Below are positions 1,714-8,634 of a stretch of 8,634 nucleotides of DNA, in pieces. The notes under the pieces are model-generated. The model searched no databases, was not told the DNA's origin, and saw only the letters and a list, made by a program, of their open reading frames with translations. How positions within the stretch are numbered: the first letter of the stretch is position 1; each line of letters opens with the position of its first letter. Location: positions 1 through 8,634 of IMG/VR virus record IMGVR_UViG_2541047932_000013; one strand, given 5' to 3'. This DNA comes from a virus (taxonomy: Duplodnaviria; Heunggongvirae; Uroviricota; Caudoviricetes). A program made the translations under genes and the position numbers.

Positions 1714-1916
1714 AACCTCACTCCCAGCGGACGACGGCGACGGCGGGTTGTCCCCAGTACCGACTCCGCATCATTGATCGCCCGGTTAAGCTCATCCAGA
1801 GAAGCCGCCGTATATTCAATTCTGCGACCATCTTTCTGGACAGACACCACCCGTTTACCGGTTAATAAATCAAGGCGCGCCTGACGCAGCGCCTGCAGTT
1901 CAGCGACTGTAACCAT
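1710..1916 (-). CDS. W: Head-tail joining / head completion protein (lambda gpW family)
   Basis: 68-aa ORF MVTVAELQALRQARLDLLTGKRVVSVQKDGRRIEYTAAS... closely resembles recalled lambda gpW (…[26 protein letters not shown]…). Same length and position between terminase large subunit and portal. Confidence 0.85.
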   Translation of the reverse strand: MVTVAELQALRQARLDLLTGKRVVSVQKDGRRIEYTAASLDELNRAINDAESVLGTTRRRRRPLGVRL

Positions 1917-3828
1917 TCACTCCTCCGGACAGCTTCGCTGCCAGTTCTTTAAGGGTTGGCCGGGTCGTCTCTTCTTCCCGGGATTTTGCCAGTACAGCCA
2001 GATCAAGCTGCCAGCGTTGCACGGACACACGTAATGCCGCGTAGGCATACACCAGGCAGTCCAGCGCTTCGTTACGCCGCTTTTTGTTATCCCACAGCAG
2101 ACGCATCTTTCCTTTTTCCCACTTCTCCACAAGCTCTTCCGCCACCAGTTGCTGCGCCTCTGTCTGCGAAAAAATCTCCGGATCATCAGGAAAACGGATG
2201 GCATACGACGTGGCTTCATCCGCAGGCGTGGGATCGGCTTTCATACGGGCATAGAGAATTTCTTTTGCGGTGTCCGTCCCCACTTCGCACAGATACACGC
2301 CCCGCTGATTGCGGGTTTTTGGCATGGTGATCACCGGCTTGCCATAAACAGATGCACCTTTTACCGGCAGCACCCGGAAAACACCGTGTTTTTTTGACCT
2401 CTGATAGACAATTTCGCCATCGATCCCCCCGGTGTCCCAGCAGACACGGGAAATGGTCATTTCGGTTCCGTCTGCATGGCGGTATTTTTTGTTGATCGCC
2501 ACATCCACACGTAACAGCGTCTCTTCCTCATCGGGACGCCCCATAATGATGATTTTATCCACCAGAAAGGCTTCCTCTCCCGGAGCCCATCCCCAGACAT
2601 ACATCTCAAAACGGTTTCGCTGCGAGTCAATGCCCGCCGTCAGATAAACCACCCGGGAAGGCACCGCAGCCGTGTAACGCACAACCTTATCCATCAGCAC
2701 CTGGTGATCGAGTTTTTCGCCCACGGCCTCTTCCCAGGTCTCGCCCAGCGTGGTGTTCACAAAGGTTTTCAGGCCGTTGGGATCTTTCAGTGCATCCAGC
2801 CAGTCATAGACAATCTGTACCCAGGTGGTGAACGGACTGTACGCCGTCCAGATATGGAATGTGATGGAGCGCGGCGGCGGAATTTCATTATCCGCGGCGC
2901 TGAAAAACGTCAGACCGTCGCGGGTCCACATGCCCGTGTTTTCGCAGATCCACCGCCCGTTGCTCTGGTCAAGCTCAGACTGATGGATCACGCAGCCATG
3001 ATGTTCACAGAGGTAGAAAACGCTTTCGGGGCTGTCCTTCTCCCATTTAAGGCCAAAAGGCGTGGACTCATCGCCAAATTTCAGATACTGCGCCTCCCCA
3101 CAGTGCGGGCAGGACACATAAAAACGCATGAAATGCGCCGACTCGTTGGCCGCTTTTTCGATCTGGCAGGAGCCTTTTATTTTAGGCGTCGAGCCGCGAA
3201 TGGATTTTGGCCATACCGAGCCCTCAATACGCTTATCCCCCAGCAGGGTTGGCGAGCCCTCTTTTTCGACATCCGGCTCGAACGAGGAAAGTTCGTCATA
3301 GCAGACCACGTCCACGGATTTTTCACGGTAGTTTTTTGCTGCCGCACCACCCAGGCACCAGAAGCCCACCCCCGATGAAAAGCGTTTCAGCGTGAGAGTA
3401 TTGTCACGATGTTTACGACCCAGCCACGGGGAAAGGTCTTTCAGGCATGGCACGTCCCGAATCGTCGCCTCCACGTGAGACTTCATAAAATCTTCAGCGG
3501 CAGAATCCGTGGGCTGAAAAAGCAGACTGTTTCGGGATTTATGCTCAATAAAATACCCGGCGACTCCCAGCAACATCTTTGTATAGCCAACACGGGCAGA
3601 TTTAATCAGATTAACAGTGCGGATCTGATCATTCCCCATACTGTTCATGATGGCGATCTGGAACGGCAGCGTTTTCCATTCGCCGTCACCGTATGAGGAT
3701 TCTTTAGGCAGATAATAATACTGGTCAGCCCATTCAACTGCCGTCATCGGTACAACCCTGACCAGAGGCTGCAGCGCAACCGAAACGGCGGCCACCATAT
3801 TATTCAGTTGTTGCTCTGATATATTCAT
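1900..3828 (-). CDS. A: Terminase large subunit (lambda gpA family)
   Basis: Strong similarity along the whole length to recalled lambda gpA (TAVEWADQYYYLPKES…, KRFSSGVGFWCLGGAAAKNYREKSVD, WTAYSPFTTWVQIV, RNEALDCLVYAYAALR). The six-frame ORF extends to 3885, but the homologous start is the internal ATG at 3826-3828 (MNISEQQ… versus lambda MNISNSQ…). Confidence 0.9.
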   Translation of the reverse strand: MNISEQQLNNMVAAVSVALQPLVRVVPMTAVEWADQYYYLPKESSYGDGEWKTLPFQIAIMNSMGNDQIRTVNLIKSARVGYTKMLLGVAGYFIEHKSRNSLLFQPTDSAAEDFMKSHVEATIRDVPCLKDLSPWLGRKHRDNTLTLKRFSSGVGFWCLGGAAAKNYREKSVDVVCYDELSSFEPDVEKEGSPTLLGDKRIEGSVWPKSIRGSTPKIKGSCQIEKAANESAHFMRFYVSCPHCGEAQYLKFGDESTPFGLKWEKDSPESVFYLCEHHGCVIHQSELDQSNGRWICENTGMWTRDGLTFFSAADNEIPPPRSITFHIWTAYSPFTTWVQIVYDWLDALKDPNGLKTFVNTTLGETWEEAVGEKLDHQVLMDKVVRYTAAVPSRVVYLTAGIDSQRNRFEMYVWGWAPGEEAFLVDKIIIMGRPDEEETLLRVDVAINKKYRHADGTEMTISRVCWDTGGIDGEIVYQRSKKHGVFRVLPVKGASVYGKPVITMPKTRNQRGVYLCEVGTDTAKEILYARMKADPTPADEATSYAIRFPDDPEIFSQTEAQQLVAEELVEKWEKGKMRLLWDNKKRRNEALDCLVYAYAALRVSVQRWQLDLAVLAKSREEETTRPTLKELAAKLSGGVNGYSR

Positions 3829-4309
3829 CGAGTAAATCCGGTAATTTATCCCCTGCCCGCGCACACTGATTTGCCCCCTTCGCAATAAGGGTTTTCAGAT
3901 GGTCAAGATGGCGCGGTGTTAAATCAGGAAACTGTCGCTGCATGGATAAAGGGATGGAATCAAGCGTACTGGATAACGCCATTGCCAGCTTACTGAGGGC
4001 AAAAATACAGAACCCGGTGTCAATAAGTTTTCCTTTTGACACCTCATTTTTTAACTGCTGTGTAACAGCCTGTTCTGCTGTCAGTTCCCATCTGGCAATA
4101 AGCAATTTCTCCTCATAGTCGTCTTCGCTATCGCCATCAGGCACATCGTTTTTACTTCTCCTCAGATACGATATGTAAAAATCGCGCCAGGCATCCAGAT
4201 CCAGTTGCCCTCGCTTATTCGATATCGGGGCACCCGGTAATTTCTGCAATCTGCGAAGCTGGCGATCGGTCAGACTTAAATGCCTGGCAACTTCAGTCTG
4301 CGTAGCCAC
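3800..4309 (-). CDS. nu1: Terminase small subunit, Nu1-like, with a divergent N-terminal DNA-binding domain
   Basis: C-terminal half (DTGFCIFALSKLAMALSSTLDSIPLSMQRQFPDLTPRHLDHLK…LPDLLDEYI) matches the recalled lambda Nu1 gpA-interaction region. The N-terminal ~90 aa (MATQTEVARHLSLTDRQLRRLQ…) is HTH-like but not lambda-like. GTG start with GAGGTGAGGA immediately upstream; the 3' end overlaps the A start. Confidence 0.8.
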   Translation of the reverse strand: MATQTEVARHLSLTDRQLRRLQKLPGAPISNKRGQLDLDAWRDFYISYLRRSKNDVPDGDSEDDYEEKLLIARWELTAEQAVTQQLKNEVSKGKLIDTGFCIFALSKLAMALSSTLDSIPLSMQRQFPDLTPRHLDHLKTLIAKGANQCARAGDKLPDLLDEYIRATTE

Positions 4310-4504: not shown

Positions 4505-4710
4505 CGTAACCGGTCGGATCGCCGGAAAGGACCCACGAAATGATAATGATTATCATCTATATAAGGTTTATCACAACATGTGTGTACGCCATCAAACCAC
4601 GAGAAATAATCAATTATGACGCAGGTATCGTATTAATTGATCTGCGTCAAATTAACGTAAAAGCAACTTCAGATAATACAAATCAGCAACACTGAATATG
4701 GGGAAACATT

Positions 4711-4896
4711 ATGTCATCAAAGAACAGAACCCGCAGAACAACAACCCGCAACATCCGATTTCCAAACCAGATGATTGAACAAATTAACATCGCTCTTGAT
4801 CTGAAAGGTTCAGGAAACTTTTCAGCGTGGGTTATTGAAGCCTGCAGAAGAAGGCTGTCAACAGAGAGTTCGGGTATGAATTACATAATTAAGTAA
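4711..4896 (+). CDS. Small basic protein, possibly a ribbon-helix-helix DNA-binding protein, of the kind found next to cos in lambdoid prophages (YlcI/DUF3950-like by recollection)
   Basis: 61-aa ORF MSSKNRTRRTTTRNIRFPNQMIEQINIALDLKGSGNFSAWVIEACRRRL…: basic N-terminus followed by a strand-helix-helix-like pattern. Transcribed opposite to the late operon. GGGGAAACATT lies upstream of the ATG. Confidence 0.55.
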   Translation: MSSKNRTRRTTTRNIRFPNQMIEQINIALDLKGSGNFSAWVIEACRRRLSTESSGMNYIIK

Positions 4897-5519: not shown

Positions 5520-5987
5520 TTATTTCAGGCACTGAGTGCGGATATAGTCCTGTGCCCCTTCCAGTTGCTTGTGCATCGTCATCAGCCGCTCTCTGAGGGT
5601 GAAATAATCCCGTGTAACGGTGTCTGCCAGTTGGGGGCCGGTTGCATTATCCACGCCGGAGGTGGTGGGGGCTTCACGCACGGAGCCTGGACAGGTGGCG
5701 TTGATCCGCAGGCGCTTACGACCAGCGGCAACGTCAGCGCGAAGAGTTTCATTTTCAGCTCTCGCATCGGCTAATTCCTTCGTGTATCTGGCATCAAGCG
5801 CAGCGACATCTCGCTGGCGCTGCTGCATGTCAGTAATAGTGGCATTCGCCAGTTTCAGCTCACTGACTTTTTTATCGCGCTGCGCTTTGTAGGTGATGGC
5901 GTTATCGCGGTAATGATTCAGCCCCAGACTAAGCACACCACAGGCTACCAGCAGGACAATAATCACCACACACAGAACACGGTTCAT
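5520..5987 (-). CDS. Rz: Rz i-spanin (inner-membrane spanin subunit)
   Basis: Very close to recalled lambda Rz ([16 protein letters not shown]…[33 protein letters not shown]…[17 protein letters not shown]). The real start is most likely the internal ATG at 5985-5987 ([13 protein letters not shown]…, N-terminal TMD); the six-frame ORF's extension to 6071 is probably not translated. Confidence 0.9.
5582..5767 (-). CDS. Rz1: Rz1 o-spanin (outer-membrane lipoprotein spanin subunit), embedded in Rz in the +1 frame
   Basis: [61 protein letters not shown] matches recalled lambda Rz1 (…LPLVVVGC…[30 protein letters not shown]…). Lipobox VSAC and a proline-rich tract are present; the gene is fully nested in Rz. 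Confidence 0.88.
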
Positions 5988-6086
5988 ATCACCACCAACG
6001 GATTGCCCAGACCAGAACAGCAATGGCCACAATACGAATGGCAAATGCCATTGCCCGAATAAGTTCAGCACTCATCTTTTTAAAGT

Positions 6087-6567: not shown

Positions 6568-6600
6568 AAAACCCCGCTTGGTGCCAATAAACGGGGTTTT
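6568..6600. terminator. Bidirectional intrinsic-terminator-like hairpin between the endolysin and the small-peptide ORFs
   Basis: AAAACCCCG (6568-6576), a 15-nt loop, then CGGGGTTTT (6592-6600): a 9-bp GC-rich stem. T-rich sequence follows on the plus strand (TTACTTTTATT) and on the minus strand (TTTTGTGTTTCTG). Confidence 0.5.
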
Positions 6601-6690
6601 TACTTTTATTCACTTACGTTTCGCCAGTTCGCAGGATTTCATGTTATCCGCCCGCGTGGCCATGCCTTATTTTTCAGCAAAATATTCTGC

Positions 6691-7224
6691 TTATCTGTCG
6701 ATACCCCAGCACGCCAGCGCGCTCTCCTGGTCACGACGGGATACCTGACCGTAGCAGTTGTTTGAACGAATACGGCAGTCTCTGCCACCGTCCTTAATCC
6801 ACCAGCGAATCGCCTCACATGCTCCCCTGCGATCACCAGCATTAATTCGTCTGTAAAACGTCGACGGGAAACACTTACCGGGACCAATGTTGTACGGACA
6901 GAATGACGCGATCCCCGCTTTCTGGGGTTCGGTCAATGGCACTTTGATGTTTTTCTCCACCCATGCCAGCGCCTTATCACGTTCGATGGCGTTAACCTGG
7001 TCGCATTTCTCCTTCGACAACTTCATGCCCGGGACGACAGGTTTACCATCCACCAGAATGGCACCGCGACAGATGGTCCAGATACCCGCGCCATCACGGT
7101 ATGCCGTGGTGTGGTTACCTTCCTTTTCATCCAGAAACTGGTCGAGAATGTCAGGCGCAGGCGCACCAGCGGCAATCAGCGCCAGAACGGCAGCCGACAG
7201 GCCGTATTTGATTTTGGTGTTCAT
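6691..7224 (-). CDS. R: Endolysin, T4-lysozyme-type (GH24), with an N-terminal signal-anchor-release-like hydrophobic segment
   Basis: 177-aa ORF. N-terminal KYGLSAAVLALIAAGAPA hydrophobic stretch, followed by a lysozyme catalytic E…D…T spacing (EKEGNHTTAYRDGAGIWT). It is partnered with an S21-type pinholin. Confidence 0.85.
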   Translation of the reverse strand: MNTKIKYGLSAAVLALIAAGAPAPDILDQFLDEKEGNHTTAYRDGAGIWTICRGAILVDGKPVVPGMKLSKEKCDQVNAIERDKALAWVEKNIKVPLTEPQKAGIASFCPYNIGPGKCFPSTFYRRINAGDRRGACEAIRWWIKDGGRDCRIRSNNCYGQVSRRDQESALACWGIDR

Positions 7225-7260: not shown

Positions 7261-7818
7261 CTAAATACGCACTTTAAGATAAGTCAGCCCCGGATGAAGC
7301 CAGTAAGCCGGCACTTTTTTAAAGGGTGGAGTATTAAAATCACGAAGAAGAGCCTCCCGCACAATTGCATCCTTATCAGCACCACTGGCCAGCGCTTCAA
7401 TCTCAGCGGCTACCTGAAGATATCCCATGCAACGGCCAACGCGCTTCATCAGCCCCTGCTTTTTATTGTTCTTCAGGTAATCAATGGCAAATTCAATGAG
7501 CTCCTCACTGTGCTGGTGCAATGGAGGTGTTACTTTCCCATTTTCTGAGATGGTTATTTTCCCGGCATCACCGGATACAACAAAGGATGGCCGGTTACAC
7601 TCCCATTCCAGGTTACTGAAATTATCATTATGAATACTGAAACACTCTGAGAGATTTCTGCTCATCACTTTCCGACAATAATCGTCAAACGCAGCAAACT
7701 GCTCATCGCGGCGTTTTTTTTCATCTTCAGAAGGCATCAGCGTCGACAGTTTTTTATTCAGTTCAGCAATTTCATTTTCCAGACGACTGAAGCGCTGATT
7801 CATTTCTTCATGGTTCAT
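7261..7818 (-). CDS. Hypothetical 185-aa soluble protein with an N-terminal coiled-coil-like segment, inserted between holin and endolysin
   Basis: ATG at 7816-7818 lies directly after the holin stop (7822-7824), with GGGGAG upstream. No TM segment or signal peptide is visible; the N-terminus reads EEMNQRFSRLENEIAELNKKLSTL. The sequence is visibly more AT-rich than the neighbouring lysis genes. No family recognised. Confidence 0.6.
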   Translation of the reverse strand: MNHEEMNQRFSRLENEIAELNKKLSTLMPSEDEKKRRDEQFAAFDDYCRKVMSRNLSECFSIHNDNFSNLEWECNRPSFVVSGDAGKITISENGKVTPPLHQHSEELIEFAIDYLKNNKKQGLMKRVGRCMGYLQVAAEIEALASGADKDAIVREALLRDFNTPPFKKVPAYWLHPGLTYLKVRI

Positions 7819-7821
7819 CAC

Positions 7822-8028
7822 CTAATCTCCCCGGGCAGCCTTGCGACGGTCCTCTCTGATTTTGAAATACAGGTTAGTCAGATACGTCAGCAGGCCAAAC
7901 AGCAGACTCCCCAGCACACCTATCGCCACCCACTGGGACGGAGAGACTTTGTCCAGCAGCTGCAGTAACCAGTATCCCGTCCCCACCGCTGACGTGGTGT
8001 ATGACACACCCGTTGTGATTTTTTCCAT
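7822..8028 (-). CDS. S: Class II holin (pinholin), phage 21 S21-like
   Basis: 68 aa: [68 protein letters not shown]. It is nearly colinear with the S21 pinholin as recalled (two TMDs, …[14 protein letters not shown]…[21 protein letters not shown]). Confidence 0.88.
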
Positions 8029-8069
8029 CTGATGTATGTCTCCGTCACCGCCGACAGAAAATGAAAGTA

Positions 8070-8108
8070 AAGGAAAACAAAAAGCCGCCAGTGTCGCCCA
8101 CTGACGGC
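8070..8108 (-). terminator. tR'-like intrinsic terminator upstream of the holin (minus strand)
   Basis: On the minus strand: stem GCCGTCAGTG / CACTGGCGGC (10 bp, one mismatch; plus 8084-8108) followed by TTTTTGTTTTCC. It ends about 40 nt upstream of the holin start, the position of the terminator read through by Q in lambdoid phages. Confidence 0.5.
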
Positions 8109-8187
8109 CAACGCCGGGAGCCGTGATTATGGCATTCAGGCTCTGCTAAAAATGCCAGATAACATTCCGGCTCCCCCCCTGATTCAG

Positions 8188-8214
8188 GTTATAAATGACA
8201 CAATATCTTGACAA
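8188..8214 (-). promoter_or_regulatory. Candidate late promoter (pR'-like): -35 TTGTCA and -10 TATAAC on the minus strand
   Basis: Minus-strand reading TTGTCA-(15 nt)-TATAAC, about 80-110 nt upstream of the tR'-like hairpin. The spacer is short and Q was not seen in the window, so this is tentative. Confidence 0.25.
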
Positions 8215-8287
8215 CACCCATCACTGTCTGTCAGAAAATGTACTGCCAGATATAAGTATCATGTGAAACCCAACTATCCTTCTTAGC

Positions 8288-8329
8288 CAGTACTTCTCCG
8301 ACGAAAGTCAGTACTGGCTGTTTTTTTAT
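8288..8329 (+). terminator. Plus-strand intrinsic terminator hairpin abutting the stop of the partial upstream ORF
   Basis: CCAGTACT…AGTACTGG (8-bp stem, 15-nt loop with an internal GAC/GTC pair) followed by CTGTTTTTTTATT on the plus strand. The minus-strand reading has only an A-run before the stem and no U-tract after it. Confidence 0.45.
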
Positions 8330-8634
8330 TATGCTGCCGGTGCATTTATCTCCAGCACCAGACTTTCTATCTCAACGCCATACGCTGCATTTTTTGTAAC
8401 ATCCGTCAGCGTCAGCGCATTCAGTCCCAGTGTCAGACTGTCTTTTATAACCTGGAATGCCGGGCCAGCCACTCCATTCAGTTTCGGAGTAACCGTGGCA
8501 CTGCCGGCGGTGAACACCAGCTCCAGCGTCTGCCAGTCGTTACCGTAATCGCCGAACTCCCCCAGCTTCGTGTTTCCGGCTTTCCTGTGATGCATCAGAT
8601 TCACTCTGCCGTCAGTGGTCTGAGTGAAGTACGA
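8329..8634 (-). CDS. Partial ORF of unknown function (C-terminal ≥101 aa; N-terminus beyond the window edge)
   Basis: The reading frame is open from the window edge to the stop at 8329-8331 (…TLELVFTAGSATVTPKLNGVAGPAFQVIKDSLTLGLNALTLTDVTKNAAYGVEIESLVLEINAPAA). It is beta-rich-looking and not Q-like (no Cys/His zinc motif). It sits in the slot between the Q region and the lysis genes where lambdoid phages carry cargo. Confidence 0.45.
   Translation of the reverse strand, partial: SYFTQTTDGRVNLMHHRKAGNTKLGEFGDYGNDWQTLELVFTAGSATVTPKLNGVAGPAFQVIKDSLTLGLNALTLTDVTKNAAYGVEIESLVLEINAPAA

Follow-up and report, generated by a model that had tools for sequence, protein, structure and literature searches.

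A probable PasA/PasC-family small RNA gene lies tail to tail with nanS-p between the cargo and lysis genes of a lambdoid prophage

INTRODUCTION

The closest described relatives of the locus analyzed here are the small RNAs (sRNAs) PasA and PasC. In EPEC E2348/69, PasA is encoded on the minus strand of NC_011601 (743499→743415) with a major form of 85 nt (Table S6, PMC8550237, Pearl Mizrahi et al. 2021), and a minor form of 236 nt, which ends at 743264, was also reported, as was the northern probe GCCAGCACTGACTTTCGGTGGAGAG for PasA (PMC8550237). The gene is located between E2348C_0688 (esterase) and E2348C_0689 (holin), on the opposite strand to both ('> < >'), while PasC (1290909→1290832) adjoins the esterase stop codon in PP5 (PMC8550237). 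Both are discrete RNAs of ~80–85 nt, of which the size was confirmed by northern blotting and the stability depends on Hfq in E2348/69, and RIL-seq revealed dozens of partners for them among core and accessory mRNAs (PMC8550237). Their homologues in EHEC are EcOnc51 and EcOnc52 (PMC8550237), which were described as Hfq-CRAC sRNA candidates in EHEC O157:H7 Sakai (Tree et al. 2014, PMC4104026).

Other short Hfq-binding RNAs are encoded antisense in lambdoid prophages. The anti-sRNAs AgvB and AsxR (Rfam RF02702 and RF02703) come from the 'moron' region downstream of pR', a setting like that of the sRNA described below, although their sequence and position are different, AsxR being located 282 bp 3' of stx2AB and upstream of nanS-p.

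NanS-p is a characterized and very common esterase of Stx phages and lambdoid prophages. Its gene is recognized as a variable gene of the Q–S region, and its expression increases upon phage induction (PMC10462455). The NanS-p homologue of phi24B was reported to be a processed capsid-decorating protein (2026 preprint).

Herein, we analyzed a phage-derived sequence of 8,634 nt (hereafter the window, meaning this whole stretch), in which a partial ORF on the minus strand meets a hairpin with a U-tract on the plus strand. Our reading, to which we give a probability of about 0.88, is that two known elements lie tail to tail at this point: the 3' end of nanS-p on the minus strand and a self-contained 85-nt sRNA gene of the PasA/PasC family on the plus strand. 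The layout 'esterase–PasA–holin–lysozyme' has already been published, the window agrees with it, and both elements belong to described families.

RESULTS

The window covers the late region of a mosaic lambdoid prophage, and all of its major genes are on the minus strand, as listed below.

121–1713, minus: lambda-family portal
1900–3885, minus: terminase gpA
3800–4309, minus: Nu1
5520–6071, minus: Rz
6691–7224, minus: lysozyme
7261–7821, minus: ORF with no function assigned
7822–8028, minus: class II (P21-type) holin S, which opens the lysis cassette (Pfam Phage_holin_2_1, E = 8.9e-33)
8329–8634, minus: 3' end of nanS-p (sialate O-acetylesterase), last 101 aa, identified by translation and homology; the gene runs past the window

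Several features of this region were recorded apart from the locus of interest. Terminator-like sites were enriched in the whole window (23, against 9.0 ± 2.8 in shuffles), and sigma-70-like promoter sites were depleted (3, against 7.8 ± 3.2). The 186-aa ORF between the holin and lysozyme genes (7261–7821) had no domain in a Pfam search and matched only positions 117–296 of the 296-position PHROG 1085, a family of unknown function; the S–R slot that it occupies varies among relatives, with 263 aa in a Stx1 phage and 114 aa in Sakai Sp12. Between the end of the lysozyme gene (6691) and small minus-strand ORFs (phrog_1115 and phrog_4906), a CCCCG...CGGGG hairpin (6568–6610) with an A-run upstream and T-runs downstream resembles a bidirectional terminator, and its sub-threshold Rfam match to the rimP leader probably reflects mere terminator shape. 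Two small plus-strand ORFs of 51 aa (phrog_9395) and 61 aa (phrog_949), both from families of unknown function, are located at 4540–4896, antisense to the late operon in the Nu1–Rz interval, which is a classic moron position.

The minus-strand frame at the edge of the window stays open for 101 codons, from 8634 down to the TAA stop codon at 8331–8329. These residues were identical at 100 of 101 positions to residues 516–616 of the 616-aa yjhS/NanS-p of Stx1 phage LC567819, and the C-terminal domain is DUF6645/jelly-roll (Pfam PF20350, E = 3.9e-8, above the cut-off). The full-length homologue has the Pfam architecture DUF1737 + SASA + DUF6645 and matches PDB 3pt5 (NanS) and 6yp6 ('NanS-p'), the latter over homologue residues 420–613. 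When 7800–8634 was searched by megablast, 345 phage records were matched, mainly Stx-converting phages, and the annotation under the matches was either 'yjhS: 9-O-acetyl-N-acetylneuraminic acid deacetylase' or the RefSeq label 'SASA family carbohydrate esterase'. By this homology, the partial ORF is identified as the C-terminus of NanS-p, the usual cargo between stx/Q and holin S. Like the nanS-p genes of 933W and other Stx phages, it is located upstream of holin S, and its 101 residues are 99% identical to annotated NanS-p, while the window holds only the last sixth of the protein, with the DUF1737 and SASA part beyond base 8634. LC567819 carries these genes in the order Q ... stx1A stx1B, esterase (616 aa), holin.

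These results bear on a reading made earlier from the sequence alone. The original prediction described a minus-strand ORF that runs off the window, ends at 8329, is neither Q nor a lysis protein and sits in the cargo slot between Q and S, all of which agrees with NanS-p, whose gene lies between stx/Q and holin S. Its label of 'unknown' for the ORF has to be given up, since the ORF encodes the DUF6645/jelly-roll end of a characterized and very common protein. Two findings had been named there as together counting against it, a common structural or regulatory phage protein as the full ORF and the absence of a plus-strand transcript; the first half applies, NanS-p being very common.

The spacer from holin S to this ORF is 300 bp long (8029–8328). 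The following features were located in it and at its edge.

8083–8109, minus: terminator-like hairpin followed by UUUUUGUUUU on the sense strand, 55 nt upstream of the holin start and inside the 8029–8200 block
8208–8236, plus: putative promoter-like element, with TTGACA (8208–8213), a 17-nt spacer and TCAGAA (8231–8236)
8243–8327, plus: PasA/PasC-family sRNA gene of 85 nt, window allele ('class W'), identified by alignment to PasA/PasC and by a covariance model
8284–8320, plus: sRNA terminator hairpin, −18.7 kcal/mol, z = −4.1, with covariation across four allele classes
8321–8327, plus: U7 tract (T7 in the DNA), a likely Hfq proximal-face site by prediction; every allele class has its T-run on the plus strand
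8341–8371, minus: stretch of the nanS-p 3' coding end (GAUAGAAAGU CUGGUGCUGGA GAUAAAUGCA), identical to the reported PasA RIL-seq site in the E2348/69 esterase mRNAs

The hairpin beside the nanS-p stop codon has an outer stem in which A8285–T8294 pairs with A8310–T8319 (arms AGCCAGTACT / AGTACTGGCT), extended by a U8284–G8320 wobble, and an inner GAC/GTC stem that closes a GAAA loop (8300–8309). Its folding energy as plus-strand RNA (−18.7 kcal/mol, z = −4.11) was equalled by none of 200 dinucleotide shuffles. After the stem, the plus strand continues with G and T7 (8320–8327) and then ATTA, of which the last three bases complement the nanS-p stop codon. Read on the minus strand, this hairpin has the A-tract before it and AAGAAGGAUAGUUGGG / AAGAAGGAUAG after it, without a U-tract. 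Thus the combination that defines a Rho-independent terminator, a stem containing G+C with an adjoining U-tract, was found on the plus strand only, in line with what the original prediction had stated. The consensus terminator scan did not detect the 8284–8320 hairpin because it permits only loops of 3–8 nt.

Compensatory changes in the stem were observed across more than 100 related loci in which the hairpin recurs. The covariation alignment contained 15 distinct modules in four allele classes, with the stems GCCAGCAC (class A), GCCAGTAC (class W, the window), GCCAGCGTCC (class C) and GCCAGCG (class B). In the 11-pair stem, 91.5% of cells were paired, and 5 of the 11 pairs were altered on both sides; the covariation score was reached by 0 of 500 shuffles, slid-register controls were paired at 19–50%, and RNAalifold independently recovered the same stem. 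The changes comprised C-G/U-A, A-U/G-C and, in the class C (PasC-class) stem, a U-G wobble that corresponds to an A-C mismatch on the opposite strand. Considering that four allele classes represent few independent events, the covariation is supportive rather than overwhelming. The hairpin at 8284–8320 is no chance feature, and it was assigned to the plus strand because the T-run is on that strand in every class, because of the class C U-G pair, and because of the published strand-specific mapping.

The unit that ends at this hairpin aligned position for position with PasA (NC_011601 743499→743415) and PasC (1290909→1290832), from a conserved 5' CTGCCA (C8243 in the window) to the U-tract. A covariance model (R1), built from PasA, PasC, EcOnc51 and close variants with the window-class rows excluded, was run on the whole window with filters off and returned a single match, 8243–8325 on the plus strand, with 88 bits and E = 4.5e-19. 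The RNA is predicted to fold into a small 5' hairpin, ~23 nt of single strand, the terminator hairpin and U7. It is antisense to the late operon and flanked by the 3' end of the esterase gene (8329–8634, minus) and the holin gene (7822–8028, minus), so that the '> < >' layout of the family, with SASA esterase and class II holin as flanks, is present in the window.

Among the RefSeq records matched by the sRNA sequence, no feature was annotated under any match. The whole-window Rfam scan (E ≤ 1) gave only three sub-threshold chance matches and none to AgvB, AsxR, STnc100 or Esr41, and membership of the AgvB/AsxR families was rejected in the absence of an RF02702 or RF02703 match at that cut-off. 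One of the sub-threshold matches, Bacillus ncr982 at 8249–8333 (plus), reflects a generic shape of 5' hairpin plus terminator. A hidden micro-protein in the spacer was also rejected: there were only mechanical frames of 20–23 aa, none of them conserved as a gene.

The comparison with the known loci showed that the spacer is collinear with those of PasA and PasC, and that it is near-invariant from the holin start to CTGCCA; the RNA body varies, and conservation returns at the outer stem and U-tract. PasA and PasC represent the same locus type, between a SASA esterase and a class II holin and antisense to both (PMC8550237; Zhu, Shabalina and Storz 2026 preprint); in the fetched loci, E2348C_0688 and E2348C_1246 are SASA esterases. 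The upstream 214 nt agree with the window to within 4%, the 5' CTGCCA and the terminator architecture are shared, and the length of 85 nt is that of PasA, while the arrangement is that of PasC in PP5, a single module whose U-tract adjoins the esterase stop codon exactly as in the window. By contrast, the body and the stem of the window RNA differ from both: the stem is GCCAGUAC/GUACUGGC instead of GCCAGCAC (PasA) or GCCAGCGUCC (PasC), and the 5' half is like Sakai Sp12 or a 'PasA-2'-like form. The Hfq CRAC peaks of EcOnc51 (Sp12) and EcOnc52 (Sp4) fall on homologous modules on the same relative strand, both antisense with predicted intrinsic terminators; EcOnc51, the module nearer the holin, has a 5' body like that of the window, and EcOnc52 is the esterase-proximal paralogous module. 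Compared with these relatives, the window has one module rather than two in tandem, and its stem and seed are different. In the phage 434 record, terminators are annotated on the antisense strand at the homologous place.

A promoter-like element (8208–8236) is located ~35 nt upstream of the RNA start, within the nanS-p/S spacer, and its geometry would place +1 at about C8243, the counterpart of the mapped PasA and PasC 5' ends. The element is invariant in the spacer alignment. TTGACA was retained in 108 of 109 copies with a variable spacer, a count subject to ascertainment because a neighboring anchor served to retrieve the loci, and the paralogous class B module retains TTGACA-N10-CTGTCTGT-GAAAA. 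A strict consensus promoter scan did not pass 8208–8236, the −10 (TCAGAA) being too weak, and found no other plus-strand promoter-like site in 7700–8634. The PasA 5' end may derive from processing of a longer transcript (2026 preprint). Considering the weak −10, the failed scan and this possible processing, we treat the promoter as putative, and the assignment could be wrong. A possible minus-strand promoter diverging from the −35 of the sRNA (TTGTCA-15 nt-TATAAC, 8214→8187) was rejected for its short spacer.

Next to the sRNA gene, a ~170-nt block upstream of the holin start (8029–8200, minus) shows almost no variation among EPEC, Stx1 phages and phage 434 and has a strong fold (−51 kcal/mol, z = −3.7). 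The site homologous to 8083–8109, within this block, is labeled 'terminator' in the phage 434 record OL657226. This site may insulate the lysis genes from stx/nanS-p transcription lacking Q modification, or it may represent a separate RNA.

The predicted seed of PasA overlaps the 5' arm of the terminator (PMC8550237 supplement), and the corresponding arm in the window is GCCAGUACUU (8286–8295), against the published seed GCCAGCACCU. Because the window seed carries two C-to-U changes, the RNA does not belong to PasA sensu stricto (PasA/PasA-2) and was classed as a separate allele within the PasA/PasC family. Both changes would in principle still permit G-U pairing with a PasA-type target, while a seed that differs at two positions may also mean that targets differ or are lost.

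Many relatives carry a second module. In the Stx1 phage, the homologous spacer contains two tandem modules of ~150 nt antisense to the late genes, each with ATATxTTGACA, a short body, the hairpin AGCCAGxx...xxCTGGCT and a T-run, and their stems differ by compensatory changes. The two-module layout was found in PP2, Stx1 phages, Sakai Sp12, phage 434 and E. albertii, whereas the window has the PasC-like single module. The second module is diverged (TTGACAGGCATCATTGCTGTCTGTGAAAAAT...AGCCAGCG...CGCTGGCT and a T-run) and located ~150 nt downstream of the PasA-type module; it was observed in locus L001 (6553–6661), in the interval between the PasA terminator and the esterase stop codon of E2348/69 PP2 (L002), in Sakai Sp12 (L107) and in phage 434 (L108, 2520–2689), and it is the EcOnc52 of Sakai Sp4. 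Its terminator ends exactly at the 236-nt PasA end (743264), which suggests that the minor species is read-through to the second terminator. According to a 2026 preprint, copies of pasA never occur in tandem, so the second paralogue was apparently left uncounted there as a Pas copy.

The family was present in 663 of 5426 complete E. coli genomes. The 151 nt of 8195–8345 were 100% identical in many of them, and the 85-nt window allele was full-length and 100% identical in 86; strains with the identical allele include O145:H28 RM13514, O103:H2 12009 and O157:H7 PV15-279. In ~290 genomes, mostly O157:H7, a window-type allele is cut after nt 50 (compare window 8243–8292), inside the 5' arm of the terminator, with loss of the terminator; in the IMG/VR locus L062, the cut is joined to an IS629/IS1203-type end (TGAACCGCCCCGGAAATCC...) and matches the O157:H7 truncation point. 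Among 185,579 species-representative genomes, an exact-anchor scan found no match, and a degenerate-anchor scan found E. albertii only, in agreement with the published restriction of Pas sRNAs to Escherichia and Shigella. EPEC, EHEC, phage 434, Stx1 phages and E. albertii all keep the module between cargo and lysis genes.

DISCUSSION

By analogy with its homologues, the window RNA would most likely be an Hfq-dependent trans-acting sRNA expressed from the prophage. It would be transcribed antisense to the late operon from the element at 8208–8236 and end at the hairpin and U7 that touch the nanS-p stop codon. As in the homologues, it would be made in the lysogen and stabilized by Hfq on the U-tail, and its seed, which overlaps the 5' arm of the terminator stem, would pair in trans with core as well as accessory mRNAs; a side effect of the terminator would be to keep antisense transcription out of nanS-p. 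Expression, size, Hfq dependence and interaction partners are all taken here from the literature on the homologues, while the identity of the ORF, the homology, position and strand of the sRNA gene, and the structure and covariation of its terminator come from the present analysis. We infer expression of this allele, a primary 5' end at C8243 and a seed that still works despite its changes.

An action mainly in cis is unlikely, though it survives better than the other alternatives. The RNA would then serve as an antisense or convergent element that uncouples esterase or toxin expression from that of the lysis genes, through RNase III processing or interference. By construction, it is perfectly complementary to the nanS-p–S spacer of the late transcript, and its cargo/lysis position is kept from EPEC and EHEC to phage 434, Stx1 phages and E. 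albertii. RIL-seq chimeras with 'pasA.E2348C_0688.IGR' and 'pasA.E2348C_0689.IGR' point the same way, as does the PasA site at the esterase 3' end (supplementary file 9, PMC8550237), which is present at window 8341–8371. However, the reported partners of PasA are mostly trans-encoded, and a Q-modified polymerase is expected to read through in any case. RNAduplex pairing of the sRNA with the part of the nanS-p mRNA that the window contains (306 nt) gave −45.7 kcal/mol, where shuffles averaged −45.8, and 46% of the shuffles were at least as good; since this signal is not above the shuffles, no specific cis target is claimed.

That the hairpin and U-tract form a mere insulator, stopping stray plus-strand transcription from the lysis side before it enters nanS-p with no functional RNA involved, is highly improbable. 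The terminator does face the lysis side and adjoin the nanS-p stop codon, and the minor 236-nt read-through form of PasA in E2348/69 implies that the control of termination matters here. Upstream of it, however, is a unit with a conserved promoter-like element and an 85-nt body; the homologues of this body are abundant RNAs of discrete size that depend on Hfq and have dozens of partners in RIL-seq, and the consensus scan found no other plus-strand promoter-like site in 7700–8634. The second paralogous module, which repeats the sequence from promoter to terminator in tandem in relatives, suggests selection on the units themselves. The original prediction had seen the terminator mainly as such a shield against transcription from the lysis promoter side, an emphasis that does not hold for a terminator ending a dedicated 85-nt unit with a promoter-like element ~35 nt upstream of the RNA start; its further suggestion of a short plus-strand RNA ending at the terminator is supported, at the level of sequence, by the PasA/PasC homology and the 88-bit covariance match.

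A minus-strand role for the hairpin, as a 3' stabilizing stem or weak terminator of the nanS-p mRNA, is the least credible of all: it lies 9 nt past the nanS-p stop codon and folds nearly as well on that strand (−18.0 kcal/mol, z = −3.5), but no U-tract follows the stem in any allele class, the PasC-class U-G pair becomes A-C, the published strand-specific data put the RNA 3' end on the plus-equivalent strand, and the nearest sense-strand terminator-like site is at 8109–8083.

The preferred reading, a PasA/PasC-family sRNA gene beside nanS-p, leaves little residual novelty, which consists of an un-named seed allele and an unrecognized tandem paralogue in relatives. A tentative extension, which we consider doubtful, is that class W is a third, un-named PasA/PasC allele class with stem-compensated seed changes and perhaps a target set unlike that of PasA, or that the real job of the family is cis-antisense control at the nanS-p/S junction.

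For annotation, 8243–8327 (plus) should be labeled as a PasA/PasC-family sRNA gene and 8329–8634 (minus) as nanS-p; otherwise, the finding matters little. It also indicates that a reading of the sequence alone can correctly flag the terminator of an unannotated sRNA. Pas sRNAs rank among the abundant partners of Hfq in EPEC and EHEC, and a catalogue of their seed alleles that includes the window allele could aid target prediction.
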